Origin: a virus
Strand: one strand, 5' to 3'
IMG/VR virus record: IMGVR_UViG_3300020601_000007
Coordinates: 46,124 to 110,123 of that record
DNA length: 64,000 nucleotides
The notes under the pieces are model-generated. The model did no database searches. It was given only the letters and a program-made list of their open reading frames with translations, and had not been told where the DNA came from. Below, one piece after another: positions 26,908-52,219 of this stretch. Numbering within the stretch: position 1 is the first letter of the stretch; every line of letters begins with the position of its first letter. A program made the translations under genes and the position numbers.

Positions 26908-27183
26908 TCACTTCCTGCTGTTCCCCAACCACCAACCAAGCATGGCGAAAATTGTGTCAGTTGCGATGTTCACTGGACTGTCCATCACAGAGCGGTCCCA
27001 CCCGATTGACTTCAGAACATTGGAGCCACCTTTGGTGTTTTCAACAATTTCACTGGCGGTGTGGATACCCAAGGTCTGCACTGCTGAGAAACCGGTCTGC
27101 GCCAAAACGATACCGGCAGCAAAGTGAACAAACGACCACTCATCAAGCGCAGCACGGTTTCGACGTCCGAAGAGTTCCATCAT
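26908..27183 (-). CDS. Small membrane protein with putative intramembrane metal site (DUF2585-like)
   Basis: DEWSFVHF..EIVEN..DSPVNIATD spread over three hydrophobic segments. Confidence 0.6.
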   Translation of the reverse strand: MMELFGRRNRAALDEWSFVHFAAGIVLAQTGFSAVQTLGIHTASEIVENTKGGSNVLKSIGWDRSVMDSPVNIATDTIFAMLGWWLGNSRK

Positions 27184-30100
27184 CGCACCCCTGCTTCAAC
27201 GGCCAACTTGTTGTCTGGCTTGCCCGGACCGGTGGACGAATCAGCACCAACGACAAACGCATAGACGCGCCCTGCCGCCCACTGATGTTGCTGAACACCC
27301 GGCCTGTGACCCACGCGCCATGCTGCGAGCCCCTTGTCGTAAATTTTTTCCAGAATCGACTTCTTGATTCCTGTCTCCTTGCGGATGCGGTTCAGAAACT
27401 TCTGCTTGGAGGAACTGCCGCTTGGCTTGTAGTCCTCGTCGATGTTCTTCCGGTAGAGCCGGTAATATTTCTCCTTGTGCTTGGACGGACCGATTTTCAG
27501 ACCACGGGCTGTTGCCTTGATGTCGGACTTCCAGAACTTGTATGCTTCCGGGTCGTTGACGTCGTATTTGTAGCCCTTGTCAATCTCGTCTTCCGCAATC
27601 ATTTTCTCCAGTTTGGTCAGTCCCTTGAGGTAGCGTTTGGGGAACTTTTTGCCACCGGGTGTGCGGGGGTTGCTGAACAGACTCCCCAATGAATCAAAAC
27701 CGGAACCTTCGTCATCATCATCCTCTTTCAGGCGGGCGATGATTTTGGGGTGGTCAGACTTCCTCCATTCGTCGAACCACTTGATTTTCCGCTTGTCTCC
27801 GGGTGGCGAGAATGTGCCGTCGATGATTCTGCTCGAGACTGGAATGGCCCCAATGGGTTTCCAAGTTTCCGACCACGCTTCGATGTCTGCCTCTGTCCAT
27901 CGTCCAGAGCGAATGTCCTGCAAAATCGTGTCCTCAAAGGTGCCAAGGTATTTAATATTCCATGGCATGATGTTTCCTTCGATGATGAACTCCTCATGTA
28001 GCACCCCGACCTCGTAAGGAACAGGCCTGAACTGTTCCGGGTCAACTTTCACTTTCAGCATCACCATGTTGGCGATTGCTTCCTCAAATTCTTCTCGTGT
28101 GGGCATCCGGTCCCGCTTTCCCGTGTCAAAAAACATCCCGTCGATTTGACCACCCATGACCCACGCTTGGTAGGGAGCATCGGGGTAAAAGAGGAAATTG
28201 AAATCAGCAGTGAGCCCCTTCTGCATGATTGAATTCAAGTTGTTCTTGTGCGTGAAGTGGTAGCCGAACTCGGGGATTGGCCTTGGGGGGTTTGCCATCG
28301 AACCCATGAAGCCTGAGTCGAATGAAACGAACGGTGTCACCTTGATAGGGAGACCGGGCTCGAACGGGTCATCTCCGCCAAAGTCATCGCCCATTTCACG
28401 GAAGTAGATGTTCCCAATAGGAGACCATCGGAATCCCATCCTTTCAATATTCACCTCGTTCATTTCCTCTTGAACAAAAACCACCTCGATACCAACACCG
28501 TGGACACGCTCAAGGTATTCTTTGGTCTGTGCAACCAGCGGGCGGTATTGCTCGAAGAATGGCAAGTCACCACGCGCGACCTTGTATGCCTCGTATTGCA
28601 CGTCGGGGAACATTTTCCCCTCAATCTCTTCCATGCTCTGTCCCATTCGCCTCCTGACCACCGTCTTCATCAAAAGTGCACGGGGGAGTGCTTCGGCGTA
28701 GTAATCACCGACCTTCTCTGCGGGGATTTCCAAAAACGGGGAGGGGGGATTGGGTGCGACTGGGTCAAAAGAAATGCCATTGATGACATCACTCCATGTT
28801 TGGTGTTCTGATTCGTATAGGTCTGAGGATTCACCAATATCGCCCCAATCCAGTTTCTGCTCTTCAGAGTCAATCAACCATTGTCCTGCGTATTCAACAT
28901 GTGTTGATGTCGCTGGGTCGTCTCGATAAGAGTAGCGGCCTTTCCTGTAATGGAAGCCTTTTCCTGCTAACCCCTTGACACGCTCAATGCTCATCAAGTT
29001 CTCAGCAGAATCAAAAACAAATGTGGCTGTTTCCTTGAAATCATTTTCACTTAGACCGTGAAAGGTTTCGCCCGTAGGCAGGTTCTTCTTCATCCAAGCG
29101 TATGTTCGTGGAGCCTTTTCCTCCAGTTTCGCAAGTCCCTCTCCGATGCCGGGGATGAAATACACGTTATCGAACTTGAGCGAGCGTGCTGAGATTTCCT
29201 CAAGGTCCTCCTTCATTTTCCTGATGTTCTCACTGTATTCATCGTCTGTGTAATATGCGGAAGCAAACCTGCTTGGGGACTTCTTGGTTCGGAACCCGAT
29301 GGCGTTTGGCTCGTCGCGAATGATGGCCTGCCCCTTCTTCCCCTTCCTTTGGTCGTTGTCTCCGAAAACAAACAGCGTGTCGGGCCGAGAACGAACATGT
29401 GCTGGCGTGATTTTTTCCGGGTGTGGCTCGAGTCGGGGCTTCAGGTCAGAAAAACCTCCGATGAACTTTCCGTTGACGAAAATAGCCGGAATGAACTGAT
29501 AATTCTCAGTGAGGGGGCCGATTGTTTCTTGATAACCAGACACCTTTTCGATGTCAACATACCGGTGCTTGAGATTCTTCTTCTCCACCAGTTTCTTCGC
29601 TTCCTTGCACCACTTGCAGTATTCCGCCCCGTAAATCGTAATTCCCTTCTTCAATGGCAGCGGCACAGGCTTCGGCGGATTCGACAACTGCGTGATGGAG
29701 ATGGTCTGGTCAGTGAGCCCCGGAGCGTAGGAGGCATCTGAAGGGAACCATGGGTTTGGCCTCACCTCAGAATTTTCGAGTAGGTATTGGAGTCCGAAGT
29801 GCAGCGGCTGAGGGAAGTCATCGAGAGCAAACCACTGAGCCCTCTCGGTTTCCCAGTTCAGCGTCGGTTCAAATTCGTCTTCGACCACGGCCAAGAAGTT
29901 GTGATACCTGAACGTGCCACTCTCAAAAACAACCAGTGGAACCATTTCAATTGGTCCTCGGTAGCCAGCCTCCTCGGTCAGTTCTCGTCGGGCTGCTTCA
30001 ACAGGGACTTCACCCGAATCAATCGCCCCGCCCCAGACACCCCATGTCCCGGGTTGTTCAACGTGTTGGGACCTGAGCGGCAGGAGGTAGCGCCCCGTCT

Positions 30101-33100
30101 TCTTCGCAACGACCAGACTTCCTGCGCCCTGACTCCCCCAGAATCCTGTTTTTTCCAGAGTCTCCTGATGCTCATCGTCACTGGTTGGGTTTGCCACTGC
30201 GGCTTGACCGACTTCTTTGAGGCCCCAATCATGAGCCCCCAACGAAATGTCCATTATCTCGGGCATTGAGTCGGTTGGCTCCTGCTGTGCTTCCTTTTTC
30301 TTCTGCTTTTTCCACTTCTTCCAGAAAGCAGCCGTCCCCCTTTCTCCTGTCATCATTGGTTTGAGTGTCCACAACGCATGCTCCACGTGCGAGTCACGCC
30401 ATAAGCCGACTTCCTTGGCAGGCTTGAGTTTGGTCATCCCTCCCAACTCGGTCTGGTTTTTCTTCACTGCTTTCATGAATTTTACCATCACAGCCTCCAA
30501 CATTGGGTAGGCTCGGTTGTATTCTGCGTTTGCCTGCTCCCACTGTTTCCATGCGGTTTTGTAGCGGCGTTTGTCTGGGTCTTTCTGGCTGAGCAATTCT
30601 TTGCGAACAGCATCCAGCCTGAACCTCATGCTATTCATCGCAACGGCACCAGACAGTTGCTCAAGAGACTCGCTATCGAAGTATTTGTTCCCCGTCCCCC
30701 GTGGGCCGTCCTCCCACCACCAATCAATCAGGTGCATGCTTTTGTCCCCCACCAAGAAATTCGGTGGGTTCCGGTCAGGCGTTAGGCCCATTCCCACCAC
30801 GTCGATGTAAGCCTTGACAAAGCGGTCAAAGACTGGCTGCTTGAATTTGCTAACCTTCCTGAGATATTGAATCGTCTGCTTCATTTGGAGATGTGGTTTT
30901 TCCATCCCCCGCCACAGAGAGGAACCAACCGGCAGCAGGTCAGGAAGCGGCTCGGCATCAAGGCGTTTCATGATGGTGTGGTATCGCTCAACCTTTCCAT
31001 CACCGAGCCCGTAAAGAGGGAAGCCAAACAGTTCTGAAGCACTCTTGGGCCATGGCGGGTATTTGTGGACGATGGTGTGTGTGCTGGGAAACACTGGCTT
31101 GCTCGAACCCTCCTTGCCTGCCAACCACTTTTTCATTTCTCGGTAATATTCTGGGCTTGTGTTTCGGTCCACTTTGAACACAAAGTCTGTCCCGGGGATG
31201 TTGAATACGGTTCCGAAAGCACCAGACCCAACCAAGTTCTTTTTGAGGACCGAGTTGATTGCTCGTGCTGCCAAGTCGGGCGCCTTCAGCATTTTCTTTG
31301 GTGGGTTGGCTTTGGTGTATCCAGCAGTGTGAGATTTTTCGGGAGGGTTCATTTTCACTTCTGTTTTGCCCCACTTGCGCTTCTCTGTCATACCGACCCA
31401 CGGGACGTCGGGACAGGGCGACATACGCTCGTAGCCGTTCTTTCGTGCCCACCGCCAAGGGTCATGTCCCCAAACCCACAGGGAAAGGAGGCGGCGTGAT
31501 GGCTTGGACTGCGTCTTCTGTGCACGGACAAGGGGGCCTTTGCGCTCCTCAGCATTCGGATTGTATGGGAAGGCACTCGTCCGCTTGACGAAACGGACCT
31601 GACGCTTGCACCAGTCCCAATCGGTCTCGCCCTTGAGTGGGTCATCAGATGGACCTGTCCACTTGCTCAGTGCTTTCTCGTAGTAGTCCTCAATGATACG
31701 AGGACCGGGTTTGATGTAGTCCTTCGGCCCGGTCAAACCGAGTTTGGCTCGCATTTTCAGGATGCGTCGGCCACTGACACGACCACTCTTGATGTTGTTC
31801 CAGTCTTTCGCTTGCTGCTTGGAAAGGCCAGCCTTCTTGCCCAGTGGTGAATCAAGGAAGGCTTTCAGTTCCTTGTTCTTCATGTTGATGAGGTGAACCC
31901 ACTCCTCGAACCAGTCGAAGAGGTCTTTGGGGTTTTCAAATTCATCGTCATCATCAAATGATTCCTTCGGTGAAACGAATGCGAAATAGGATTCATTCAC
32001 ATTCCAAACATTGACAGGCTTTACCGCTGGGTCGGTCCATGGCTTTTGGTATCGTCCTCCTAATCCCTCGAGCCCGAGATATTTCTCCCGGGCCTTCTGG
32101 TCCAACTTGTAGAATTCGACTTTGTCCACCTTGACCGTTGAGTCGGAGAACATCCTCACTTCACTTTCTGCAATCCCGAATGTGACGTTGGCCAGAAGGG
32201 TTCCGAACCAATTGACGTCACCAAAGGGAACGGTCCCCATGAGGAAGGCGATTCGACTGCTTGGGTGGAATTTGAACTGGCGGCTCATGGCCCCCCCGAA
32301 TTGGTCAGCCCCGTCTCGTGCGTTCGACCAATACAAGCCGACCCCGTATTTATTCCACAGTTCATTCAGAATTTCAGGAGGCTCTGATGTGAACATGGCC
32401 CGATACACCTTGACACGTTCACCACGGAACTTCTTGAGGTGTTCTTGAAAAATGTGCTCGGCAGCGTTTGCTGGAGAGACTCCAGTGTATCCCCAGCCCG
32501 CCAACAGTTCCCTGAACATTTTCTTTCGCCTTGCGATAATGTCCTTTTGCTTTTGAGTTGCTTTGGATGCATTGAAATTGGGGGGAGGCCTTCCAGCGAA
32601 TCGCCAAGCGATGTTGTCAAGGAGGCCCTTGTAATCGGCAGAAAGGATGACGTCCTTCAAGCGGAGGCCTTCCGGGGGGTTCGCCTTCGCTTCAGGCTCA
32701 ATAAAGGTGTTCTCGGTTCTCCCGAGGGAGTAGCCCAAGGAAACCGGAGATACGTCGTAAGGGACCGGTTTCGCACCACGTTCTCGGACTCGCCCAGCCG
32801 AATCAATATACGTGCCGGAGTGATTCCGAACAACCATGGTCTGCCCCAATTTGTTCGCTGATGTTTGTGCGAAATCGAACGCTTCCGCTTTTTCATAGAA
32901 ATAGCCAACGTATTGCTTGAGACTCGGTGGTGGGGGAGGTGGTGGGCTTCTGCTACGCTTTGCGGGTGGTGGGGGAGGTGGGGGTTGAGGATTCGAGATG
33001 AAAGCATCGAGAGAAAATCGACTCTCCTTCGCTTCGAGTTCTGCTACACCCTCCACCGGAACAAGTGCCTGAAGTGGCGGGGGGATGACCTTCGTTTTCG

Positions 33101-39000: not shown

Positions 39001-39355
39001 TGGTGGAAGGAACGATTGGCTTCGGGTCGAAGTTATCCACTGGAACCCCGAAGGACTTGTGCTCACGAAGGAAGGCTTCGTGAAGGACGGGGCGAATCTC
39101 GTCAATGTTTTCCTTGGTGGTCTTCTTTGTGTCGATGACGTAAAGCGGTTTGCCCGTTTGCTTGTCCCGATAGTTGGCACCACGGAAAACAGTCGTCTTT
39201 GCGTCCCACGAGACCGTCCCCATTTGGAACATGGTCTGCTTGAAGAACTTGACCATGAACTCTTCAATGTCAGCACGGGAAGGCTTGAGCCCTGCTGTGG
39301 CGAATTCATTGGCGTATTTTGAGAACTGGAACAACAGTCCGTCGTATTTGCTCAC
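36044..39355 (-). CDS. LigD-like fusion: AEP primase-polymerase-like domain plus ATP-dependent DNA ligase with OB fold, 1103 aa
   Basis: VIDLD..TG.KTFHIW (AEP-like); PKYDG, EGLIV, YKVK, IVEVDF, FLRVRYDK (ligase). Confidence 0.8.
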   Translation of the reverse strand: MSKYDGLLFQFSKYANEFATAGLKPSRADIEEFMVKFFKQTMFQMGTVSWDAKTTVFRGANYRDKQTGKPLYVIDTKKTTKENIDEIRPVLHEAFLREHKSFGVPVDNFDPKPIVPSTNEEQMLHESMKAMAYRYNQLTLPFRLRKTMHHELQAVLFRNAQVMTSQRFTLHSEKEIREYIDATSYGTGMGKHGGSNKGLRDIWWRPNPSGNHPKVGVIDLDNPAEMPFDELARVTYDIAKRLSLIHSTLVLFTGKTFHIWFATKPMTFETVQECWDYTYSAIMKATPDVAFNREEAITRRVPFVDKSPMSGKTMTRMLFGMHYKPALEDSTGYCAIPVALDRVKKFNPQEAHPVAVMRDFERLKGMADAWFISAEVGDGFEETEAAPPCFRIPTDNPDKENPLVVKLQAWKKQPWTGGSGGIRYRDIGNELLQHPRLVVTPKYDGNVGLLAFNKRGGFKVHGKRLDSRKGASRAGMDVERSVMVTARGGVIGWDNYLTREFERICQDNDVDSIEVVVESIVVDGNGRVMGNEESRSILATGTDNHDPTTFRRLKAVIVDVLSVDGKDVSSLPFEERIMKAADLEGDRIRCVDPTVVEDDYEATVQAIWRSQVQERMNEGLIVYAGDRRYKVKRKYTIDGVIMGIYKGKVWQDKKPRLASILIGVSKKTNEGMAFVPVGRAINIPHEEGKKLFKEVLGEQTGEYGQFEHAVRNPGLEERYPDIQIVDPRVIVEVDFQKLSNRRSIAGPTLLRKPTRGHTGFQMGLSVTKSERYVRKLVGPANFLRVRYDKDIEDSADYSFRQGDGAGGFKIGVRADPMVNPALMVSPDDSPSAATPLFVSKTGLTSVMPNPFYGYAAGPRWVSGGRRPFMLPEHPGLVFEETPIGHKPVQPAGKQGGRTSAPDDWLTLKQEFADQLQSEEGKWGLHYDPQKIRFPKDKDGIAYFLDIPGFALGSDDAIYDEEGPNIGGVVSDKNREEVRYHNQLLMDYMVDEEQKARDGEVAALANLDQRSFQSFPVPVGELPDEEFDATFYDQQAENIASQFARLALDSKADNEKRNESRRRVLANPEHTEDSKSKKSIARSERGVIRPFDAFMVFEGEGEEE

Positions 39356-42047: not shown

Positions 42048-42542
42048 TCACAACCGGTAAGCGAAGCGATACGTCGGGTAGGATTTCCCTTCCTTCGGTA
42101 TGCCGCCGGTTTGAGGTGGCAACACTTCGACAGTGAAGTCCACACGGTCAGCACCCATAGAGGTTGCGCCGTATTCGCTGGGTTCAACGAAGAACTCGCC
42201 CGTTTGACCGGGCGTCAGGGTGAATGTCCGGGTGTTGGCAGTGACTGTCGCACCAGACTTCTTGGAATTGTAGGTGATGCGGACGACGGAGCCGTTGTTG
42301 CTATCATCCCTGAAGCGCAACTGAATACCCATCGCTGAACCGTGGTAGGTGCCACCGTTCGCAACATTCGCTTCTGTCACCTGATTTGTGCTTTTGTTGT
42401 AGTAAGTGATGCGGAGAGAGGAAATGTTCGGAGCAGGATTGCTGATGACCCGCTGCCCTCCATACAGGAAGAGTGCTGCAACGGCAGCAATACCGAGCAG
42501 TTGCTTGTTTCGCTTTTTCTTTGATGGGCCAAATGGATACAT
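42048..42542 (-). CDS. TM-anchored beta-sandwich protein
   Basis: Basic N-terminus, TM, ISNP, then beta strands; GAGGTGA RBS. Confidence 0.65.
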   Translation of the reverse strand: MYPFGPSKKKRNKQLLGIAAVAALFLYGGQRVISNPAPNISSLRITYYNKSTNQVTEANVANGGTYHGSAMGIQLRFRDDSNNGSVVRITYNSKKSGATVTANTRTFTLTPGQTGEFFVEPSEYGATSMGADRVDFTVEVLPPQTGGIPKEGKSYPTYRFAYRL

Positions 42543-42902: not shown

Positions 42903-42911
42903 TCACCCACC

Positions 42912-45401
42912 TCAATCAATCAACCATGCTTTGCCGTCTCGCATACCGATTTTCATGCTCCCGCCTTTGATGATGAGCATCGGCTCACCACTTTCAGGCA
43001 TCGTTGCATACAGCGTCGGGAAGTTGCCATCCTTTGACTCCTCGTTCATTTCGTGGATGAACTTTTGCTCCTCGTCACCGTTTTCCTTGGGCGACTTGTA
43101 GCCAATGGTCCAGCACTCTCCCAGTGAATACCAAACATCACCGACGTCAATTTTCTCAGTCGTGATTTCGTCCGGGGTCTTGCCACCGTGGAACTTCTTG
43201 TAAGCGTCTTTGGCCTTCTTGACCTTTGCAGGCTTCGCAGGGTTCTTCTTCACCCCGCCACGAAGTTTGATTGCATCAGCATTCGCAACGATGGTGATTG
43301 TTGCGGAACCCTGAATGATTTCGTAGTCCATTTTTAGGTTGGCGACTGCGTTGCCACCGAGGGCCTTTGCGTTATCAGAGAGTTCCTTTTGCATTGACGC
43401 AATACCCAACGCCAGACGCTTTTCAGCCATTGACGTTCGGCCACCAATGAGCCCTCGGTAGATGGCCTGAACCACTTCACCGACGTCTTTCACAACGTTC
43501 CTGCCAATCACAACTTCAGCGAATATCGCACCGAGGTTCTTGGTCATGGCTTTCGGTTCACCCGAATAGATGGGAACAATACCAGACGGGTTGTCAATCG
43601 GGTTCCACGTCTTCGTCACCGAGTTCACGCCACGCTGACCGTATTCCTCTTTGACGTAGCGAAGAGCCACAGCAGAACGCTGGGAGTTGTCAGGGAACTC
43701 TTCGTTCATCATTTTGTTGCCCATGAGGCGGTCGAAATATTTCTTCGCTGATTCACGGCGCTTCTTCCCGGTCTTCTTGCTGGTCTGGCGACGGGGCTTC
43801 GGGGGAGGATTGCTGAGTGTGGGAATCCTCATGCCTGATTTGAGGATAGGTTGCAGTGGAGCCGAACCATCTGTCCGTTCTGGAATCGTGTTTCCGGCTT
43901 GAATCCACGCCTCCAGTTCTTCGAGTGAAGTCCAATCGGGGATGCTGAATCCCCAGTGGTTAATGGAATGCTCTCGACTGTAATTCTGCAAACCTTCCCA
44001 TTGATGGGTTTTCAACATCGTGTTTCCAATTTCAAATGGATATGGATTGAGTTCCAACGACTCTGGCCCGATGTTCCAAGTAAAAACTTGGTGTTGCCCG
44101 TTTCGGTCATAGTGCAGACTCCCGTCTGGGTTCAAGGGGGAAATCCGCATCTGGAACGATTCCTGTCGATAAGGGTGCTTCTTGTTGTATTGGTTGAAGA
44201 TTGAGAACTGCTCAAGCAGCAGATTACCGAGGCCCCCTTGAGCGACTGACAGGGCAATTGAGTTTGGAGTCGAATACACCCCCACTCGGGGATTCTCCAT
44301 AACGGCGCTCGGGCCGTAGGTGACACAGGGGTTCTTCCCGCAACCACAGTTGGGGTTGCTGAGTGAAGGGCTGGAATCGAACGGAGTCACCTTGATGGCG
44401 TTGCCGGGACGGAGTGGGTCATCTCCGCCAAAGTCATCGCCCACTTTTCGGAAGTAAATGCTGCCATAAGGATTCCACTGCATACCTCGTGATTCATCCC
44501 CTTTGTGTTGGACAAAAACCACCTCGATACCGACGCCGTGAACACGCTCAAGGTGTTCTTTGGTCTCCATAATCAACGGCTTTCTTTCTGTCTGAAAATA
44601 TTCCAAGACGCCTGCTGCGGGCAAGTATGCTGGGTAAATCCCACCCGGAGTGTAACTTTGGCCCATCTGGTATTCAATCAAAAATGCACGGGGGAGTGAT
44701 TCGGCATAGTAACTGGGAACCTCTTCGGGTTTGATTGCGTTCCAAAATTTGCGCTTCGATGGATTCGTCAGCGTGTAAGGACCCGGCGTCGGTGCAGGAT
44801 GGAGGCCTGAGAGCGTGTATGACCCGGGCGTTGGTTCAGGTGCAAGGTAGGGGTTCTTGCTGTCGCCGATGTAGTCGTTGACCGTTGCATAAACACCCGG
44901 AACGTCCATTTCCTTTGCAGCGGCAGCAGAACTGCTCCCGAAGGAGAACACGATGTCGTAGCGGTTGCCCAAGGAACGGATGTTCTTTGCAGCATCGCCC
45001 ATCAGCACGAGCGGTCCTGAACTGTCTGCCGTCACTGGGTATCCAAGTTGGCGTAGGCGGTCCTGAAGTCGGAACTGGTATGAGTCTTCGAGGGAACTGA
45101 TGAAAGCAATCACATGGTTCTTCCGCCCCAATTTGTTGACGAAGTCTTTGACACCCGTGCGAGAGACTGCCTTCTCAAGGTTGTTTGCCACCTCGCGCTC
45201 AAACCGCTTTCCAGACAGTCCCTTGCGACGAGCGATGCGCTCACCCGCTGAGTTGCTGAGAAGAGCCTCTTCCACATGGAAGACTGCCATTTTCCCCTTG
45301 CTCAAAGCATGATTTGGGTTGCTCTTTGGCAGGTTAGCACCACAGACAATGCAAAACACCACGCCGTCGGCGTTGTCAGCGTTGCAGGATGGGCACTCCA
45401 T
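42912..45401 (-). CDS. NP-punctuated multidomain protein (829 aa): zinc ribbon, degenerate HAD-like domain, shared module, YbjQ/UPF0145 domain, C-terminal FHG domain
   Basis: CPSC..FCIVCG; GRNVVKD..GLIGG..AKALGGNAVANLKMDY (YbjQ); about ten NP motifs. Confidence 0.8.
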   Translation of the reverse strand: MECPSCNADNADGVVFCIVCGANLPKSNPNHALSKGKMAVFHVEEALLSNSAGERIARRKGLSGKRFEREVANNLEKAVSRTGVKDFVNKLGRKNHVIAFISSLEDSYQFRLQDRLRQLGYPVTADSSGPLVLMGDAAKNIRSLGNRYDIVFSFGSSSAAAAKEMDVPGVYATVNDYIGDSKNPYLAPEPTPGSYTLSGLHPAPTPGPYTLTNPSKRKFWNAIKPEEVPSYYAESLPRAFLIEYQMGQSYTPGGIYPAYLPAAGVLEYFQTERKPLIMETKEHLERVHGVGIEVVFVQHKGDESRGMQWNPYGSIYFRKVGDDFGGDDPLRPGNAIKVTPFDSSPSLSNPNCGCGKNPCVTYGPSAVMENPRVGVYSTPNSIALSVAQGGLGNLLLEQFSIFNQYNKKHPYRQESFQMRISPLNPDGSLHYDRNGQHQVFTWNIGPESLELNPYPFEIGNTMLKTHQWEGLQNYSREHSINHWGFSIPDWTSLEELEAWIQAGNTIPERTDGSAPLQPILKSGMRIPTLSNPPPKPRRQTSKKTGKKRRESAKKYFDRLMGNKMMNEEFPDNSQRSAVALRYVKEEYGQRGVNSVTKTWNPIDNPSGIVPIYSGEPKAMTKNLGAIFAEVVIGRNVVKDVGEVVQAIYRGLIGGRTSMAEKRLALGIASMQKELSDNAKALGGNAVANLKMDYEIIQGSATITIVANADAIKLRGGVKKNPAKPAKVKKAKDAYKKFHGGKTPDEITTEKIDVGDVWYSLGECWTIGYKSPKENGDEEQKFIHEMNEESKDGNFPTLYATMPESGEPMLIIKGGSMKIGMRDGKAWLID

Positions 45402-46879
45402 CAGTTCATCCCCTTCTGAAGAATTTGCTTCAAAGCACGCTTCTGAGTGCGGAGTTCCTTCGCTTTTGCTTTATCCTCTGGAAAGGTTGAGCCTTTGATA
45501 GCAGCCAATTGCTGGTCGATGTCAGAAATTTGTCGCTCAAGAACAGATGCTGCTGCCTGTGCTTCGTCGTCGTAGATGACCTTGCCTTCAAAGGACGCAG
45601 CAGCCTCTTGGGCTGCTCGCTCGCTCTCCTCCGCTTCAGTCAGTTTCCTGTTCGAGCGGTTAAGACTCTGGCGGAGCGTCTGCTGCGTTCGTCGAGCCCT
45701 TTGCTCGGTCATCTCAAGTTGGCCTTGTAGTCGCTCCATTTCCTTGGGAGGCTTTCCACCAAAGAGTCGGATGCGGTCGTAATGCTCGTCTGCGAACTCC
45801 TTTGCGACATCTGTTGCTTTGTCGACGATGTCATTCTCCCAACTGCCAGAATATGGGACCCTGTTAGCCGCTCGGGCTACGACCCTGTTTCGGACGTCTT
45901 CAAATTTAAGTTTGGCGACATCTGCTTCTTTCAGGCCAGTGGCTGGCCCGAGGTAAATGCGCTTGATTTCAGCAGCACTGATGAGTTCAACAACCCTTTG
46001 TTGGTTCTCATGATGCTGGTCAGCGATGCGCTGAATCCTGTCTGCGTCCCAGTTCACATCAAAGGCATCGGAGATGTCGTGGCGGGCTGGTCGGTCGAAT
46101 GGGACCATGCCACCTGCCATCGAAATTTTGCCGAACTCGCTGTGCTTTTTGATGCGCGCCATGGCCAGTTCTTGTGATTCCAAAAGGCCACCCAAAACGG
46201 TCTTCATCTGAATCCAAAACGACATGTTGGTGTTTCCTTTGAGGTCGAGGTGCCACTTACGGAGTGCTTCCTCGTATGCCATCAAAGCCTGCACCTGCTT
46301 CTCCAACTTGGTGATGTGCGGGGTGTCCTGCATTCCCGTGTATTGCTCCTTGATGTTGTCTACCGACCTGCGGATGTTGAGCATCTCGCTCGGACTCAAA
46401 ATGTCACGGAGGAGTGCTTCTTGCTCCCCTGAAAGTGCTGGGTTGGGGAAGTTGTCCTTCACCTTTTCGTGAAAGTTCAAAACGTCATTGTGCATTTCTC
46501 CGACCTTCGATTCGAGGACTCGCTGGTTCGCTGCGACGTCTGGTGGTGCTTCTCCCTCTTCCATGAACATCTGGAGGTCCACCTTTTCGGCGATGATTTG
46601 GGTCAACTTCTTGGCCGCCAGTTCACCAAGAATGTCTGAAAAACGACCAGCCTCTTGTTCAAACGCGTTAAACACCTTTTCGTCCAGTCCGGACGTTTTC
46701 TTGATGTTTTCTCGTTCAACGGCGATTGCTTTCTGAATCTCCTTGATGAGGTCTCGCTTGTCAGACGGGCTCAGATTCAGTGGCCCAAGCGAGTCGGTGA
46801 GGTTTTTGAATTCGTCCTTGGTGAAAGGGTCTGGGGCGAAAGTCCCCTCTGAGAAAAAAGGAAAGAGGTCTACCATCAC
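45401..46879 (-). CDS. Alpha-helical coiled-coil protein, 492 aa
   Basis: Heptad-rich; translationally coupled. Confidence 0.7.
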   Translation of the reverse strand: MMVDLFPFFSEGTFAPDPFTKDEFKNLTDSLGPLNLSPSDKRDLIKEIQKAIAVERENIKKTSGLDEKVFNAFEQEAGRFSDILGELAAKKLTQIIAEKVDLQMFMEEGEAPPDVAANQRVLESKVGEMHNDVLNFHEKVKDNFPNPALSGEQEALLRDILSPSEMLNIRRSVDNIKEQYTGMQDTPHITKLEKQVQALMAYEEALRKWHLDLKGNTNMSFWIQMKTVLGGLLESQELAMARIKKHSEFGKISMAGGMVPFDRPARHDISDAFDVNWDADRIQRIADQHHENQQRVVELISAAEIKRIYLGPATGLKEADVAKLKFEDVRNRVVARAANRVPYSGSWENDIVDKATDVAKEFADEHYDRIRLFGGKPPKEMERLQGQLEMTEQRARRTQQTLRQSLNRSNRKLTEAEESERAAQEAAASFEGKVIYDDEAQAAASVLERQISDIDQQLAAIKGSTFPEDKAKAKELRTQKRALKQILQKGMN

Positions 46880-48969
46880 GGACCCCCCAGATTTTGAAGT
46901 GCTGTGCTCAACGCTTGAAGTGCCATGAGCCGCTGGATTGCGGTGAGAGAGGGACCACCAGCCGGTGGAAGTGCCGTCAGGGTGTTGATAGCCGTTTGGA
47001 CGGTCTGACGATTTGCCCTCCCCTGTGATTGTGCGATTCGAGCAAGTCGTCGTGCAAGAGTGGTCACCGACACTGTTCCTGACGCATTCTGAATTTGAGG
47101 CAAGGACTTAAGCATCAGAGCAGTGACAAAGCGGATGTCTTCTGCTGATGATTCATATCCGTATTTGGTAATCGCGAGAGACACCGCTTCGAGCATGACG
47201 TCGCCCATTGAAACCGGATTTGTTCCACCCATCATCAGGTTGTTGAAATTCATGTTGCGTAAGCGCTGCTGTATCGCCAAAGTGTAGGCTTCAAAGGCCG
47301 GTGGAGGGGGAGCGACTGCTGCTGCTCCGCCGAGAGCAGCCATAGCAGCCGCAATATCAGTTTCAACTTGACCGCCGGGAATAAGGTCTGGGGCGGCGAG
47401 GTCAGCGATGGTGATGGTGATGGGGGGAACCGCTGCTCCCGCTGCACCGACAGGAACTGTGACTGTCTCTGGGCCACTGACATCGGCATTGAAATTGAAG
47501 TCGAGTGTTGCGTTGGCTCCCACGTTCGTGCGGTATTTTGCGACCACTTGCATGGCAGCAAGCACGAGAGAGTCCGGCCAATCGGTCGGTCGAGGACGCA
47601 TCCCCACCAAGTCCATCACCCAAACGACCGGTGGGAATTTTGCCTGACCTCGTTGCAGAATGTCTGCCTGCTGTTTGCTGGTAAGCGTTTGATAGGCTTC
47701 GACATAGGCTCCGGCATCGTCAGCAAGCGGGGCATCGGTAGCATCGACGAGCCCTGCTTTTGCGAGGTCGTCAAAGGCTCCAACGATAGCACCGATGTCC
47801 AACTTCTTGGCTCGCTCCTTGATGAAGTCCCAATTGAAGTCGCCACCGCGCTGTGAGCCACCGAGCATGTAGTCCCCGAGGAAGTCGACTGCGTATTTCT
47901 CGGGTCGTGCTGGCTGGGGACCAGCAGGACGCATACGCCGAGGTGGACGCAGTGCTTTCTCATTCTTGTCTGTCCGACGAACAAACGTCCCGCCTCGGTA
48001 TTGTGGTGGATTCCCTGCGTTCATGAAGAGGTCATTGACACGAGCAATCATGAACTCGTTCTCGAAGTAAGCATCATCTCGCTTGCTGAGTGTCTTCGGG
48101 TCAACAGGGGGAGGAAGGACAACGACACCGAAACCCGGGAAAAGGAACGCTGGGTGAGCATTGATGCTGAAGTCCTTCCCGTTGTAGAAGTCTGCTGGGT
48201 CAGTAGCCATGTGCTTGACCATGTAGTCGAACTCGCGTTGAAGCGCCTTTCCACGGATTTTGAGTTCCTTTGCGACGGGCAGAATGTGCTGGCGAATGTA
48301 TTCAATGGCCCTGCGGTTTGCTTCTGCCGCAAGCAGATACGGCGTGAAAGCAGAATCAACGAAGTTCCTGACTTCACCTGCGGTAGCAAGACCCTGAACG
48401 TTTGCCGCTGGTGCCATCGCCTCCTTGACGTATTTCATCATCGCTGCATCTGTCTCAGCGACCTCTTCACCCAAAAGTCGGCCACCGAAGGAACGGCCAA
48501 AGCCAATAGGAGGTGTTGGATTTCGCAGTGGGAGGGCGCCGCCCTTGTAATCGTAAAACCGAGCACGGAGAAGTTCTTCTGCCATAGGGGAGGAAGCCGT
48601 GAAGGCGTTGAGTGGGCGGGCCATCAGCATGGACAGCGACTGAACAGCACCGAAAAGACCGTGCTCTCGGACCATCGCTGAAACCAATGCTGGCTGCACT
48701 TCTTCAGGAAGAACGTGCGTTAGGTTGGTTGTGTGGCGATTGGCACCAAAGCGGCGTGAAGTGAACGTGGCTGGATGAGCAGGATTTTGCTTGACACTTC
48801 CGACGATTCGCACCTCAGTGGTGGTGCCGTTGGTCAAGTCCCCGAGTGAAATGGATTCACCGCTTGGATTCTCCAGTGCGTATTCACGGGAATCAGTGAT
48901 GCTTCGGACCCACTGGTGAGCCTTTCCGAGGGATGCTCCACGAAGGGTTTTGGGAACGGTGTGCATCAT
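46876..48969 (-). CDS. Large Ala-rich protein with N-terminal NP motifs, 697 aa
   Basis: LENP, KQNP, LRNP; PPPP linker. Confidence 0.7.
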   Translation of the reverse strand: MMHTVPKTLRGASLGKAHQWVRSITDSREYALENPSGESISLGDLTNGTTTEVRIVGSVKQNPAHPATFTSRRFGANRHTTNLTHVLPEEVQPALVSAMVREHGLFGAVQSLSMLMARPLNAFTASSPMAEELLRARFYDYKGGALPLRNPTPPIGFGRSFGGRLLGEEVAETDAAMMKYVKEAMAPAANVQGLATAGEVRNFVDSAFTPYLLAAEANRRAIEYIRQHILPVAKELKIRGKALQREFDYMVKHMATDPADFYNGKDFSINAHPAFLFPGFGVVVLPPPVDPKTLSKRDDAYFENEFMIARVNDLFMNAGNPPQYRGGTFVRRTDKNEKALRPPRRMRPAGPQPARPEKYAVDFLGDYMLGGSQRGGDFNWDFIKERAKKLDIGAIVGAFDDLAKAGLVDATDAPLADDAGAYVEAYQTLTSKQQADILQRGQAKFPPVVWVMDLVGMRPRPTDWPDSLVLAAMQVVAKYRTNVGANATLDFNFNADVSGPETVTVPVGAAGAAVPPITITIADLAAPDLIPGGQVETDIAAAMAALGGAAAVAPPPPAFEAYTLAIQQRLRNMNFNNLMMGGTNPVSMGDVMLEAVSLAITKYGYESSAEDIRFVTALMLKSLPQIQNASGTVSVTTLARRLARIAQSQGRANRQTVQTAINTLTALPPAGGPSLTAIQRLMALQALSTALQNLGGP

Positions 48970-48984
48970 TTTCTGTCTCCCCCA

Positions 48985-49443: not shown

Positions 49444-49447
49444 TCAT

Positions 49448-52219
49448 TCACTTCCTTTTGTAATACCGTCCTCGGTTCTTCCGGCGGATGCGGAAGAGAG
49501 AACGCTTCTTCGGGTTCTCTGCATAGATGGGCTCACCGTAAAGGGCGATGAACTTCTCCCATGCTGCCTTGATTTTCTTGTTGGCCGTGAATGGTTTGAT
49601 GGTCGAATACGAGCGACCGGTGTCTTTGTCGGTCACCCGAGCCTTCTTGAAAAGGATTTTTCCTGCTTTGCCCTTCTTGCGTGGCAACTGAATAATCCAA
49701 GGCATGCGTGTGCCACTGTCCTTGTGTTCGGCTTTCCAAGCAACGTAGCCAGCGTCCTCGAAGCCACCGAGCAAATCACGAAGACCTGTGTTGTCTGTCC
49801 CCGGTTTGCCAGCGATGGCCATCGTTCCCTTGGAACGCTTGGCGTTCTTCTTTTCTGCCGCAGTGAACTTGAACTGTGAAGGGTTGCGCAACTGAATGAA
49901 GAAGTGCTGACCCTGACCAACAGTCACTGGGTTGCTACGAGATGACTTACGAGCGGCATTGATTTCGTCCTGCGTCATGTCCAGTTGCCCCCACCCCATT
50001 TTGCTTGGGATACCGTAAGGGAAGAATCCGTCGTCTTGACCCGTGTAGTGGTAGACGATGATGTCCTGAAGGTCGCCACTGTTCGCCCAATCAACGTAAG
50101 AGGGAACATCAACGATGCTGGGTTCATTCAGCCTTCGGGCCGCGGTCCGAGCCGTTTCGTCGCTCCAGTTGACGTAGCCGTTGGACCCGTAGATGACATA
50201 GGGGCGAGGTCGATAAGCATCACCGCTCTGTGCTTTGCGAATTGCGGCATTGAGTGAAGCGACGTTGTTCATGCTGTGCTTACCAAGCGAGTCGTGCTGT
50301 GCCTTGATGACGTCAACCACTTCTTGTGGGGTCATTTTCGTGCCGCCGACGCGAACGGGGTTGGTCCTGACTGGAATCTGTCCGTAGCCCACCGGCATGG
50401 GCGGCATGGGCGGCATCTGAGGAGTCCGGACACCGGGGGTATGTGAAATTGCGAATATTTTGATAGGGTATCGCGGGGAATCCATATTCCTCTTTTCCCT
50501 TTCAATGATAGAGAACTTGCCGTTGTAAAGCCGCTCCAGTTCCTGCTCCACCAAGCGGATGTAATGCGACCTGTCGTGTAACTTGTCCTGTGCGAGCGAC
50601 GTCAGTATGTCGTCGAGGGCAAAATACGCATCCCTTTTTGCGAGGTTGGGGTCAGTGACCTCGTGGTCCATGAGGGCCTTGGGGAGTTCTACGCGATAGG
50701 TGTCCATGTTTCCTTGCTCCCTCATCGCTTTGTCCAACAGGTCCTCGAAATGCTTCTCATCCCAAGCGGCGACTTGCTCGAGAATCTTTTTCTGACCCTC
50801 GACATAGATTTCGTCCCGTCGGGCTGAACTGTCGAAAGCCATGTTGCTCATTACGCCGGGGTTCGGCTGAATACGACCACGGCGTGGGCGTTGATTGCCC
50901 TGCTGTGGTGGAGCGATGACCTGAGATGCCTGACGAAGTTTGTCCCCAAGTTTGAGGTAATCTCCGTAGGGTGTCAGATTCAATTTGACCTCACCGGTAT
51001 CAGTCAATCGGATGACGTGAGTCGGCGTTGCATCGCTCATGCTACGCACCTTGACCCACATTTCGTTTTCGTAGTTGTTCCTGTTGAACAAGGCATTGAA
51101 GTCCGTTTTGCCACCACTGAGAGGCCACTCCTTTTCGTCTTTACCGATTGACTTCGACACGATGTAGTGCACATCTGGATTTTTCGAGGCATCTGCTTTC
51201 TTCTTGTCCTTCGCAAATGCAACAGCGATGACAGTCCCTTCACGCGTCAGATGACTGCGACCGAGATGGTCAGTGTTGACTGAAAATCGGACTGCTGACT
51301 GGTAGTTGATGGGAGCCTGAATGAGAGCCGAGACGCCAGCACGAGCAGTCATGGTATCACCGATGTTGTAGGATTCAACCACACGCATCATCAGGTTGTA
51401 GGTCGTCAGTGCATCAGCCGCTGGGTTGCTGGTGTTCACTGCGTAGGTGCGTCCTTGGGCTCCGATACCCATTTCGATTTCCTTGATGATGGCGACTTCG
51501 TTTGCCTCGAGTGGGACGTAGCGGTTCAGGAATTCCTCATACACGGCAGCGCCCTCATCGGAGTGAAGGAGGTTGACCGAGTAGTAGTTGTAGTAGCGAA
51601 GTCGAATCGACTTGAGGATGTCCATCGCAAGGCGGAGCATCTCTCGGTATGCGGTGTTTGGTCGGCCACCCTTGGCGGTCACTTGCCCCGTAATGAGGTC
51701 ATACACCAATTCACCTTTGGCAGTCTCACTGCCGACGTTCACCAACGGGTGGTCAATCAAGCGGCGCTTGAATGCCTCGTGGGTGACATCGGTTCGCCAC
51801 TCTTCAGCGAACAGATACAGGGAGGCCTTCTCAAAATCGGAAACAGGGGCACTGAGTTCCGCAGCCACGTCCTGACCGTCCATGTTGTTGACGTAATTGC
51901 GCCATGCTTTCTCGGAAATCACGTAAGCGTAAGGTGAGGAACGAATGTCGTCTGCACGACCACCGAGCGCTTTGCCCAAGGCGGAGAACGCCTCAGAACC
52001 GACCCACCGCTCGCTACCACGGGCACCGGGAAGGCGAAGGGCTCGCCATGGAATTTGGAAGGAAGAGACAGCCTTTCGTGGGGGGTTCACTTCGACCATG
52101 GTTGGTGCTTGCTGTTCGTGCTGAAGGTCCTCGTCGCTGAAGAAAACGCCGCCCTCCTCGGACCCGACCATGTAGTCGTCATCTGTATCATCAATGTCAA
52201 TGCTTCGCCTCATCACCAT
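49448..52219 (-). CDS. NP-punctuated multidomain protein, 923 aa
   Basis: Acidic leader; EVNP, QPNP, RTNP, RSNP junctions; basic C-terminal domain. Confidence 0.75.
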   Translation of the reverse strand: MVMRRSIDIDDTDDDYMVGSEEGGVFFSDEDLQHEQQAPTMVEVNPPRKAVSSFQIPWRALRLPGARGSERWVGSEAFSALGKALGGRADDIRSSPYAYVISEKAWRNYVNNMDGQDVAAELSAPVSDFEKASLYLFAEEWRTDVTHEAFKRRLIDHPLVNVGSETAKGELVYDLITGQVTAKGGRPNTAYREMLRLAMDILKSIRLRYYNYYSVNLLHSDEGAAVYEEFLNRYVPLEANEVAIIKEIEMGIGAQGRTYAVNTSNPAADALTTYNLMMRVVESYNIGDTMTARAGVSALIQAPINYQSAVRFSVNTDHLGRSHLTREGTVIAVAFAKDKKKADASKNPDVHYIVSKSIGKDEKEWPLSGGKTDFNALFNRNNYENEMWVKVRSMSDATPTHVIRLTDTGEVKLNLTPYGDYLKLGDKLRQASQVIAPPQQGNQRPRRGRIQPNPGVMSNMAFDSSARRDEIYVEGQKKILEQVAAWDEKHFEDLLDKAMREQGNMDTYRVELPKALMDHEVTDPNLAKRDAYFALDDILTSLAQDKLHDRSHYIRLVEQELERLYNGKFSIIEREKRNMDSPRYPIKIFAISHTPGVRTPQMPPMPPMPVGYGQIPVRTNPVRVGGTKMTPQEVVDVIKAQHDSLGKHSMNNVASLNAAIRKAQSGDAYRPRPYVIYGSNGYVNWSDETARTAARRLNEPSIVDVPSYVDWANSGDLQDIIVYHYTGQDDGFFPYGIPSKMGWGQLDMTQDEINAARKSSRSNPVTVGQGQHFFIQLRNPSQFKFTAAEKKNAKRSKGTMAIAGKPGTDNTGLRDLLGGFEDAGYVAWKAEHKDSGTRMPWIIQLPRKKGKAGKILFKKARVTDKDTGRSYSTIKPFTANKKIKAAWEKFIALYGEPIYAENPKKRSLFRIRRKNRGRYYKRK

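Follow-up and report, generated by a model that had tools for sequence, protein, structure and literature searches.

The locus and its source element

The window, a stretch of 64,000 nucleotides from an IMG/VR virus record (a 110-kb genome with an estimated completeness of 79%), contains five genes for large proteins that are rich in the dipeptide Asn-Pro (NP).

27180..36047, minus strand: modular polyprotein of 2955 aa, 22 NP; 107 giant homologues with highly variable domain content
36044..39355, minus strand: NP-rich protein of 1103 aa, 9 NP against 2.3 expected; residues 551-691 weakly DNA-ligase-like
42912..45401, minus strand: NP-rich mosaic protein of 829 aa, 13 NP against 3.6 expected
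46876..48969, minus strand: NP-rich protein of 697 aa, 5 NP against 2.3 expected
49448..52219, minus strand: NP-rich protein of 923 aa, 8 NP against 2.4 expected

The polyprotein consists of an N-terminal beta domain followed by JAMM-like, HD, guanylate kinase, DUF3140-like, NUDIX, glutaredoxin and DUF7831 modules, a module common to the 829-aa protein, and DUF5824. Its homologues, which reach about 4200 aa, gain or lose DNA ligase, GNAT, SET, HAM1, NDK and other domains, and their module order differs. The 829-aa protein is built from a zinc ribbon (25 aa, preceding NP28), an alpha/beta domain, an inserted shared module, a basic module, a YbjQ domain and a C-terminal domain.

We read the source as an uncultured marine archaeal virus-like element. 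It encodes an archaeal-type PolB, an Rpb1-type RNA polymerase (RNAP) and a thermosome (E = 1.7e-140), and its gene content matches that of magrovirus group D, to which it would belong by this criterion. Group D has been described as combining archaeal-type PolB, thermosome and RNA polymerase subunit A without recognisable caudoviral structural genes (PMC5434244), and the large genes scanned here gave no PHROG or Pfam match to a capsid, portal or terminase. These elements are abundant and uncharacterised; the capsid genes of the lineage have not been identified so far, and its particle genes and viral nature are still debated (PMC5434244, PMC10160649).

Over-representation and shape of the motif

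Pooled, the five proteins contain 57 NP where 18.3 are expected (3.1-fold), which makes NP the most over-represented of all 400 dipeptides (z = 9.0). A reading made earlier from the sequence only had counted about 20 NP in the 2955-aa protein, and had pointed to the same punctuation in the other four. The polyprotein indeed has 22 against 7.6 expected, the counts in the other four each exceed expectation, and every NP context that it quoted is found in the sequence; 0 of 3000 shuffles reached 57 NP and the shuffle maximum was 34. At the nucleotide level, the five genes have 57 copies of AAYCC in frame but only 12 and 13 in the remaining frames, and NP sites use a mixture of Asn and Pro codons, so selection for NP acts on the protein.

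The enrichment is absent from the remainder of the 110-kb genome, where the NP ratio is 1.34. The neighbouring proteins interleaved with the five (894, 933, 526, 492 and 388 aa) have at most one NP each, and other large multi-domain proteins of the genome (the 1611-aa RNAP subunit, the 933-aa PolB and the 894- and 933-aa neighbours) are not enriched. Like the motifs in the substrate sets of maturation proteases, the motif is enriched in some of the proteins and confined to these.

Six residues make up the motif, [P/V/I/A]-[R/K/M/L]-[S/Q/N/T]-N-P-[P/S]. The consensus proposed earlier, hydrophobic-x-N-P-(P/basic), came close but is better written in this form: position -3 prefers P/V/I/A with K/R/H depleted, position -2 prefers R/K/M/L, position -1 is small and polar, and position +2 prefers P or S, with NPP accounting for 21% of family NP sites. 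Information content is limited to positions -3 to +2, a span that would match the part of a peptide lying in the groove of an enzyme. Pro itself is over-represented at +2 and again from +4 to +7, the linkers being Pro-rich overall. A position weight matrix (PWM) trained on homologues scores above 2 bits at 46% of the NPs in the five proteins compared with 4% elsewhere in the genome. Two smaller proteins carry a site of related appearance.

42048..42542, minus strand: 164-aa protein, its gene placed between those of the 829-aa and 894-aa proteins; RVISNP, a motif-like site, at residue 35
23383..24420, minus strand: 345-aa Arg-rich protein (20% R); IVNP closes a hydrophobic leader of 12 residues, after which come RRRKAPARRKTT-type repeats

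The sequence-only reading had included the IVNP of the Arg-rich protein among its sites; it is present, but because its PWM score is just 0.3 the site is suggestive, not established.

Conservation in homologues

Homologues drawn from marine metagenomes keep the enrichment, with ratios of 2.2-4.4 in the 829 family, 2.5 overall in the 923 family, 3.43 in the 697 family and, for the giant homologues of the polyprotein, about 3 in the 90 NP-rich giants and 2.67 over all 107 giant matches. Junction NPs are often the sole conserved residues in unalignable linkers. At polyprotein seams N and P are conserved at 0.74-1.0, compared with 0.20-0.57 for the flanks and 0.30 for other Asn, as three seams illustrate.

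33987..33992, minus strand: NP686 (IRINP/RKA), seam before guanylate kinase; N 0.87 and P 0.96 against flanks of 0.26; homology breakpoint (11 sequences) 1 residue off
33414..33419, minus strand: NP877 (ILTNP/RVH), seam after guanylate kinase; N 0.76 and P 1.00 against flanks of 0.20; breakpoint (59 sequences) 2 residues off
27666..27671, minus strand: NP2793 (LFSNP/RTP), seam before DUF5824; N and P kept in 72 of 72 aligned homologues; breakpoint (70 sequences) 1 residue off

In the 829 family N28, N183, N213, N531 and N720 are invariant together with their prolines (13 sequences, 41-71% identity). In the 697 family all 33 homologues, down to 27% identity, have NP62; for NP150 the count is 27 of 33 and for NP320 it is 24 of 28. 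The 923 family keeps NP45 (21 of 22 homologues), NP453 (9 of 11) and NP763 (18 of 22), each as the sole conserved element of an unalignable linker, and the 1103-aa protein has three NP columns in common with a 42%-identical homologue. Homologues without NP at equivalent junctions, the case named earlier as speaking against the motif, are not the pattern seen: NP is kept there, and its frequency is well beyond what amino-acid composition would give. NP at module junctions is a conserved motif under selection, common to a family of modular viral proteins. Even if uncut, a two-residue motif invariant across otherwise unalignable linkers in five families is a clean short linear motif.

That N is rarely replaced at conserved seams would suit protease-free self-cleavage, in which Asn cyclises to a succinimide and the Asn-Pro bond breaks slowly or when triggered inside the particle. 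The chemistry is established, being that of asparagine peptide lyases (FlhB/YscU; reovirus mu1 N42-P43), and several viral capsid proteins mature by Asn-dependent self-cleavage. However, known Asn lyases need a specific fold at the site, whereas the sites here lie in disordered linkers; the tetrapeptide NPTH is essentially absent (none of the window's 57 sites, and 2 of 2003 family sites); and some homologues carry KP, DP or NA at conserved seams. Because information lies upstream of N, the -3 and -2 preferences pointing to an outside reader, a separate recognising protein fits better than fold-dependent self-cleavage, which we regard as improbable.

Placement at module junctions

The sequence-only reading held that NP marks almost every domain junction, and the sites do fall mostly in linkers by Pfam envelopes, AlphaFold2 (AF2) pLDDT and homology breakpoints. 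No NP falls within the Pfam envelopes of guanylate kinase, NUDIX, glutaredoxin, DUF7831 and DUF5824; the NPs lie 5-20 residues outside them. In the AF2 model of the 829-aa protein the confident segments 1-26, 34-178 and 532-598 are bounded by NP28, NP183, NP531 and NP600/604; in that of polyprotein residues 1-336, confidence is low at 109-113 (NP113) and 326-336 (NP329/333), as well as in two short internal stretches. The 2955-aa polyprotein has 27 homology breakpoints, and for 13 of them an NP is found no more than 10 aa away, where the background rate is 14.8% (p = 4e-5); of the seven breakpoints backed by at least 10 sequences, six have an NP that close. Counted by site, 14 of its 22 NPs match a breakpoint. 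Across the 90 giant homologues, 73% of internal BLAST HSP starts and 67% of ends (about 70%) are within 10 aa of an NP compared with 15% at random, and the modal HSP starts at N or stops at P.

There are exceptions. NP93 and NP131 fall in confidently modelled parts of the N-terminal AF2 model of the polyprotein, NP1496 and NP1760 have no nearby homology breakpoint and a poorly conserved Pro, and two well-supported polyprotein junctions, glutaredoxin/DUF7831 (~2206) and the end of DUF7831 (~2325), lack NP.

Modules reorder and move among the 2955, 829, 1103 and 697 families with NP at their borders. The 471-649 module of the 1103-aa protein recurs within giant homologues, and another module is common to the 829-aa protein and the polyprotein.

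44229..44735, minus strand: shared module, residues 223-391 of the 829-aa protein; 45% identity to polyprotein residues 2441-2612 (window 28212-28727)

In both proteins the shared module starts just past an NP (NP213; NP2433) and crosses the next (NP370; NP2586). Among 26 homologues, the insertion after the invariant YTLxNP is found only in the window's own 829-aa sequence. Some NP-bounded units are very short, with inter-NP pieces of 8-13 aa, and at least 15 homologues have a conserved 18-aa C-terminal tail after the last NP.

Placement in low-pLDDT linkers would also be expected of a passive structural seam, in which Asn as a helix N-cap and Pro as a breaker insulate folding modules and are neither recognised nor cut. 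Several NPs directly precede a predicted helix (in the AF2 model of the 829-aa protein, NP720 is followed by helix 724-737), the general Pro-richness of the linkers fits, and the element encodes its own thermosome, so that folding of large proteins may be a real concern. Yet a passive seam leaves the -3 and -2 preferences, including the depletion of K/R/H, without an explanation; it does not account for the exact invariance of N-P, given that any Pro- or Gly-rich linker would do; and the other large multi-domain proteins of the genome do without NP. We consider it unlikely, though it is the foremost of the alternatives.

The second option of the sequence-only reading, a repeated capsid-loading peptide, corresponds to an uncleaved docking motif that would bind a scaffold, capsid-interior or packaging protein and load the proteins into the particle. 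A six-residue footprint is typical of short linear motifs, multivalency suits avidity-based loading, and the motif is confined to contiguous genes between an FtsK/HerA-like ATPase and a coiled-coil, scaffold-like gene. A loading signal, however, need not flank each module twice or sit at exact cassette borders, and NP-bounded micro-modules of 8-25 aa are hard to explain as cargo. Furthermore, group D is considered possibly plasmid-like in the literature (PMC10160649), and virion association is putative. We consider an uncleaved docking motif fairly unlikely.

Candidate proteases

Three candidates for an NP-site protease are encoded by the element, and we list them in order of preference.

35064..35705, minus strand: JAMM/MPN+-like metalloprotease module, polyprotein residues 115-328, lying between an invariant NP113 and an NP329 that is at least 90% conserved
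25997..26485, minus strand: 162-aa metzincin-like protein with HEYGHALGLQH, followed by a possible Met-turn (DVM), and a hydrophobic C-terminus
59581..60264, minus strand: 227-aa transglutaminase-like (papain-fold) cysteine protease candidate; weak Pfam matches below curated cut-offs

In the JAMM-like module, E162, H199-T-H201-P, S211 and D214 are invariant in 41 sequences (30-83% identity). They match the E ... H-x-H ... S-x-x-D motif, with 9 residues from the second His to Ser compared with the usual 7. The AF2 model has a mean pLDDT of 85.9, and for residues 143-315 VIA-align gave Z scores of 6.7 and 6.5 for Rpn11, 6.5 for P. furiosus JAMM1 and 6.3 for Cap3, all below the tool's confidence level of about 8, with BRCC36, CSN5 and AfJAMM among the further top rows. 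Foldseek likewise ranks MPN proteins best, though at E values of about 0.01-0.1; the module has no Pfam match at E up to 0.5, and PF14464 matches nowhere in the genome. The module is a candidate for the NP-site protease and may alternatively be a cargo deconjugase; characterised JAMM enzymes cut after Gly-Gly, not Asn. It starts most giant polyproteins and is present in 75 of the 90 NP-rich giants; because the other 15 lack it, it cannot act only in cis.

The gene of the candidate metzincin-like protein lies two genes downstream of the polyprotein and adjoins the FtsK/HerA-like ATPase; in a related IMG/VR record, a copy with 58% identity directly follows the polyprotein gene. The transglutaminase-like protein, encoded upstream, has a motif-like RVKFNP at residue 15, whose PWM score of 2.1 is the second highest of any NP site outside the five proteins. 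For both of these candidates all Pfam matches are below curated cut-offs. Proteases of the legumain, assemblin, adenain and Ulp1 types were not found in the genome at its estimated completeness of 79%.

Proposed processing and its meaning

With the chances about evenly balanced, the best explanation is that an endopeptidase encoded by the element recognises the motif and so divides "polyvalent" polyproteins that exchange cassettes. Independently folding modules (enzymes, small basic modules and micro-peptides) are strung on short linkers, nearly all of which bear the motif; the endopeptidase would cut at or beside the Asn-Pro bond, and each module would be freed as a protein of its own. To travel between genes and genomes as a cassette, a module would then need just an NP site at either end. 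Around the observed enrichment, conservation, junction placement, extended motif, module shuffling and protease-like genes we infer the cleavage itself, its scissile bond, the enzyme and the place of processing, which may be the cytoplasm, the particle or a newly infected cell. The packaging of these proteins in a virion and the delivery of cargo at infection, as the sequence-only reading suggested, are likewise putative. Few proteases cut an X-Pro bond, which counts against cleavage. The more specific proposal of a new site-specific processing system in dsDNA archaeal viruses, with a protease (JAMM-type with a new Asn-Pro specificity, or a mini-metzincin) cutting [PVIA]-[RKML]-x-N-P seams and freeing a dozen or more enzymes and peptides, is plausible at somewhat under an even chance.

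If the seams are cut, a marine archaeal virus-like group uses a polyprotein strategy with a portable cut-here mark, a way of expression or delivery so far known from RNA viruses, ASFV and adenovirus. The free exchange of enzyme cassettes (guanylate kinase, NUDIX, glutaredoxin, DNA ligase, GNAT, SET, HAM1 and NDK) would be explained, and a sequence rule would predict the mature proteome of these elements. It would also provide a new protease specificity at the Asn-Pro bond, possibly useful as a tool enzyme, and the first functional handle on magrovirus group D elements.

Comparison with known systems

We found no paper in the literature that describes an Asn-Pro seam motif, and several known systems resemble the one proposed here in part. 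FlhB/YscU and reovirus mu1 (Asn42-Pro43) have the same dipeptide as the putative scissile bond, and the sequence-only reading had drawn the FlhB/YscU comparison. As membership it fails, given the near-absence of NPTH and the lack of any FlhB-type Pfam domain; here the sites fall in low-pLDDT linkers and are not part of a catalytic fold, and residues upstream of N carry the specificity. The 2A StopGo sequence (D-x-E-x-NPGP) is likewise an NP-containing signal that separates products of one ORF, and it is rejected as well: none of the 57 sites in the window reads NPGP and only 6 of 2003 family sites do, and position +2 here prefers P or S, not G. To our knowledge, StopGo is known solely for eukaryotic ribosomes.

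PPEP-1, a Pro-Pro endopeptidase of C. difficile (M34 family), is a zinc metalloprotease whose site, VNP/PVP, is repeated in its substrates. Both sites are Pro-rich and contain N-P, but Val directly precedes N in PPEP-1 sites, whereas the present motif has its hydrophobic residue at -3 and a small polar one at -1, and the local metalloprotease candidates are metzincin-like and JAMM-like, not M34.

Viral maturation proteases also read short motifs, such as LxE in T4, (M/L/I)XGG-X in adenovirus and GG-X in ASFV pp220 and pp62; we know of no use of an N-P motif in any of these systems or in the AXE system of giant phages. In the latter, the prohead proteases of SPN3US and phiKZ-like phages process numerous head and ejection proteins, cutting behind AXE with a preference for Val at P4 (PMC10052503). 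Shared with the present system are a short motif in a protein subset within a morphogenesis-like gene block, a preference for a hydrophobic residue at the third position before the key residue, protease-like genes encoded by the element, and some substrates with many sites. Unlike in maturation, the proteins here carry many metabolic enzymes rather than being structural proteins with propeptides, and cleavage is putative.

In architecture there is a likeness to the polyvalent proteins (Iyer, Burroughs, Anand, de Souza, Aravind 2017; PMC5512222), which combine 2 to 15 or more unrelated domains in one polypeptide and are moved into the host with the DNA. The polyprotein likewise joins HD, guanylate kinase, NUDIX, glutaredoxin, DUF7831 and DUF5824 in a single 2955-aa ORF of a mobile element, and its domain architecture varies combinatorially among relatives. 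Processing of polyvalent proteins by embedded peptidases has been predicted, mainly by a zincin-like MPTase, the JAB examples being RadC-type and read as nucleic-acid enzymes (PMC5512222); the embedded peptidase-like candidate here is JAMM-like, not a zincin-like MPTase. Nearly all polyvalent proteins above 1000 aa are bacterial in origin, and no junction motif was described for them (PMC5512222), whereas the predicted proteins here reach about 4200 aa in an archaeal virus-like element and have a defined hexapeptide at their seams that is common to five separate genes.

Results

Large genes are closely packed on the minus strand of the window, and five of them code for proteins rich in the Asn-Pro dipeptide (NP, followed by the residue number where a site is meant).

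NP-rich proteins, with NP counts observed and expected from each protein's own composition
27180-36047 (-): 2955-aa polyprotein, 22 observed, 7.6 expected
36044-39355 (-): 1103-aa protein, 9 observed, 2.3 expected
42912-45401 (-): 829-aa protein, 13 observed, 3.6 expected
46876-48969 (-): 697-aa protein, 5 observed, 2.3 expected
49448-52219 (-): 923-aa protein, 8 observed, 2.4 expected

The sequence-only reading had proposed that NP punctuates the domain junctions of these proteins, and all the NP contexts it quoted were found in them. Pooled, the five proteins contain 57 NP versus 18.3 expected, and NP is the most over-represented of the 400 dipeptides (z = 9.0), followed by PP (z = 3.2). Chance or composition is ruled out as the source of the excess, since none of 3000 shuffles of the pooled proteins reached 57 NP (maximum 34) and the remaining ~106 ORFs of the 110-kb genome hold 78 NP versus 58 expected (ratio 1.34). 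The signal is specific to the five proteins, and the interleaved 894-, 933-, 526-, 492- and 388-aa proteins have at most one NP each. AAYCC is enriched only in the coding frame (57 occurrences versus 12 and 13 in the other two), and the NPs draw on both Asn codons and all four Pro codons at close to their general usage; the NP signal therefore acts at the protein level, and a DNA-level motif (recombination, restriction or methylation site) was rejected. GTG or TTG serves as the start codon of many of the large minus-strand genes (window 1-64000), and these genes overlap the stop codon before them by 1-4 bases (for example at 36044/36047, 39352/39355, 45401, 52219 and 56622/56625), which implies tight translational coupling across the whole gene block.

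The excess is conserved in homologues. All 27 marine-metagenome homologues of the 829-aa protein (contigs of up to 142 kb) have NP ratios of 2.2-4.4, and NP28, NP183, NP213, NP531, NP604 and NP720 are retained in 21-26 of up to 26 aligned sequences; in a 13-sequence subset with 41-71% identity, N28, N183, N213, N531, N720 and their prolines are invariant. Conserved blocks in this family end in ...YTL(A/T)NP or ...TW(S/G)P(M/I)xNP and start with NPPPKPRRQ... or NPASPKK..., with variable insertions falling exactly between the NP-bounded blocks. Among 56 representative homologues of the 923-aa protein, the full-length relatives (30-57% identity) keep NP45 in 21 of 22, NP453 in 9 of 11 and NP763 in 18 of 22 sequences, and these sites are the sole alignable element of the surrounding stretches. 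The 697 family has an NP ratio of 3.43 and retains NP62 in 33 of 33 sequences, down to 27% identity. Single-sequence IMG/VR searches with the 923- and 829-aa proteins gave no match, whereas an alignment query recovered one related record (the source of locus L001), which shows the same split into NP-rich and NP-poor genes in the same order and encodes a 42%-identical homologue of the 1103-aa protein with three NP columns in common.

An extended motif was derived from 720 dereplicated NP sites, and its information is restricted to positions -3 to +2.

Residue preferences of the NP motif
Position -3: P, V, I or A preferred; K, R and H depleted
Position -2: R, K, M or L preferred
Position -1: S, Q, N or T preferred; aromatics and Cys depleted
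Positions 0 and +1: N and P
Position +2: P (25%) or S

With the window's near-identical sequences left out of the training set, the position weight matrix (PWM) gives more than 2 bits to 46% of the NPs in the five proteins and to 4% of those in the remainder of the genome (Mann-Whitney p = 4e-8). Matches outside the five proteins are few, and two of them lie within the same gene block: RVKFNP (residue 15) in a transglutaminase-like cysteine protease candidate and RVISNP (residue 35) in a 164-aa protein between two NP-rich genes. Overall, the results establish a six-residue linear motif under selection at module seams.

The polyprotein is one member of an extensive modular family whose module borders are marked by NP. 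A search with its residues 1900-2955 found 107 giant homologues of 1600-5000 aa, with highly variable domain content (guanylate kinase, NUDIX, glutaredoxin, DNA ligase, GNAT, SET, HAM1, NDK, DUF7831 and DUF5824) and varying module order. Ninety are NP-rich, and 17 are NP-poor with only DUF7831 in common (individual ratios starting at about 0.9-1.3, pooled 1.6). None of 16 window proteins has a homologue in the loci of these NP-poor giants (L005-L016, encoding P0175-P0191), so the 17 belong to unrelated elements, and comparing them with the NP-rich giants for protease co-occurrence was dropped as uninformative. When the 90 NP-rich giants were compared with each other by BLAST, an NP lay no more than 10 residues from 73% of internal HSP starts and from 67% of internal HSP ends, compared with 15% of random positions, and the modal HSP starts exactly at the N or stops exactly at the P. 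Because these HSPs are not independent, the breakpoint test was redone on the window's polyprotein alone, where an NP is found within 10 aa of 13 of the 27 breakpoint clusters (14.8% background, p = 4e-5) and of six of the seven breakpoints backed by at least 10 sequences; conversely, 14 of its 22 NPs coincide with a homology breakpoint. Conservation at junction NPs is 0.74-1.0, versus 0.20-0.57 in the flanks and 0.30 for other Asn.

No NP falls inside a Pfam envelope, and predicted structures agree with placement at junctions. The AF2 model of the 829-aa protein has confident segments at 1-26, 34-178 and 532-598, bordered by NP28, NP183, NP531 and NP600/604, and in polyprotein residues 1-336 (mean pLDDT 85.9) the low-confidence stretches include 109-113 (NP113) and 326-336 (NP329/333). 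There are exceptions: NP93 and NP131 fall within confident parts of the N-terminal model, NP1496 and NP1760 have no nearby homology breakpoint and a poorly conserved Pro, and neither the glutaredoxin/DUF7831 border nor the end of DUF7831 has an NP. Junction placement would also suit NP as a passive structural seam, a reading that we think unlikely.

Modules between NPs behave as exchangeable units. Residues 2441-2612 of the polyprotein share 45% identity with residues 223-391 of the 829-aa protein, and both stretches begin just past an NP; within the 829 family, this insertion occurs only in the window's own version. Module 530-602 of the 829-aa protein and module 471-649 of the 1103-aa protein recur within the giants. 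The latter segment is homologous to a module inside giant polyproteins with Pfam DNA-ligase domains, and residues 551-691 of the 1103-aa protein (36044-39355) weakly match ATP-dependent DNA ligase in PHROG (E = 2e-4). A Cys-rich micro-module, CGCGQ(N/D)PCITYG(P/T)M.NP, is found in the 829 family (window 44331-44354, residues 350-357 onward), and it also occurs in two 697-family members (P0211 and P0213), inserted exactly at the invariant NP62; it behaves as a mobile peptide-sized cassette. In at least 15 giants (among P0124-P0171) the C-terminus consists of a last NP and, after it, a conserved acidic and aromatic tail of 18 aa, (S/N/G)EWRHGEFAEEDPFEEYF, which could be a docking or cofactor peptide. 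The window's polyprotein stops at ...LAVEAGVR (27180-27185), where homologues run on with ...KDNP and the tail, and the tail is not encoded anywhere in the genome.

BLAST found no C-terminal anchor domain common to the five proteins. The first domain of the polyprotein (residues 1-110, window 35718-36047) is confidently predicted, and the structures most similar to it are those of phage tail-terminator, neck and tail-completion proteins (T5 p142, GTA, SaPI1 and Mu). The VIA-align Z scores of 5.4-6.3 are too weak for assignment, and the model may hint at a particle-associated anchor.

Three candidate proteases are encoded in or near the NP-rich genes, none of which is assignable to the NP motif.

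Candidate proteases
Polyprotein residues 115-328 (-): JAMM-like module lying between the invariant NP113 and NP329, whose conservation is at least 90%
25997-26485: metzincin-like protein of 162 aa, two genes downstream of the polyprotein, with HEYGHALGLQH and a hydrophobic C-terminus
59581-60264: transglutaminase-like cysteine protease candidate, upstream

In the first, the set E162 ... H199-T-H201-P ... S211-x-x-D214 is invariant. The structures nearest to model residues 143-315 are Rpn11 (Z 6.7), P. furiosus JAMM1 (6.5), Cap3 (6.3), BRCC36, CSN5 and AfJAMM, and weaker Foldseek rows agree; as these Z values are below the tool's safe level and the module has no Pfam match, we call it JAMM-like, on motif and fold. 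It is present in 75 of 90 NP-rich and 0 of 17 NP-poor giants, a contrast of little weight because the latter are unrelated elements. When contigs were searched with P0117, a giant that lacks the module, the sole match was to a ~130-aa cellular domain in unrelated MAGs. A predicted complex of the module, Zn and a 42-aa segment that contains two consensus NP sites scored very poorly (0.02), which counts neither for nor against an interaction. The metzincin-like protein has a 58%-identical copy in the related record, similarly just downstream of the polyprotein gene. Its N-terminus reads MWGECMNPEAYP and its putative Met-turn DVMNP; the Cys that lies near an NP right at the N-terminus recalls a cysteine-switch propeptide. 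A PDB sequence search with the transglutaminase-like candidate was uninformative. Profiles for legumain (PF01650), Ulp1 (PF02902) and Prok-JAB (PF14464) had no match in the genome, which at ~79% completeness is no proof of absence.

The sequence-only reading had extended the punctuation to an Arg-rich protein (23383-24420, 345 aa, 20% Arg). This protein does have a 12-residue hydrophobic leader ending in IVNP, followed by ~15 RRRKAPARRKTT-like basic repeats, but the site's PWM score is only 0.3. Its C-terminal half is hydrophobic and rich in Gly, Ala and Leu, and the protein resembles a core protein that condenses DNA and has a membrane-associating tail.

Discussion

The best explanation, which we believe about as much as we doubt, is that the NP seam motif would be a protease site dividing modular polyproteins, given the narrow footprint, the sites on both sides of exchanged cassettes, the occurrence of very short pieces between NPs and the genes for protease-like proteins. 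We consider NP as an uncleaved docking motif quite unlikely. Protease-free self-cleavage at Asn-Pro appears very unlikely; the sequence-only reading had compared the motif with the NPTH of FlhB, and motif counts exclude membership in that class as well as in 2A NPGP.

The genome is a linear IMG/VR virus record, estimated 79% complete, for which the label 'viral' is reasonable; 'virion protein' for the NP-rich proteins is an assumption. Its genes include those for PolB, an Rpb1-type RNA polymerase subunit and a thermosome (whole genome, including window 11697-13358), and in this it is like magrovirus group D, whose gene content includes all three and in which a morphogenetic block was not found (PMC5434244). 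A later study regards group D as possibly plasmid-like and reports its enrichment in cellular fractions (PMC10160649). A 238-aa FtsK/HerA-like ATPase (25294-26010) adjoins the metzincin-like gene, and together with the NP-rich block it may represent the missing morphogenesis module of that group. GenBank phages gave no match to this ATPase or to the 526-aa protein, and an ESM Atlas search with the latter was uninformative.

Literature searches found no paper describing Asn-Pro polyprotein cleavage or an NP seam motif, and nothing relevant on DUF5824. The closest described class is that of the polyvalent proteins, for which processing by embedded peptidases has been predicted and a seam motif has not been described (PMC5512222). 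Mechanistically, the nearest precedent comes from giant phages, whose head and ejection proteins mature by motif-directed cleavage after AXE, with Val favoured at P4 (PMC10052503). The NP-rich proteins would add to polyvalent or polyprotein processing a new, explicit seam motif, in an archaeal virus-like lineage.
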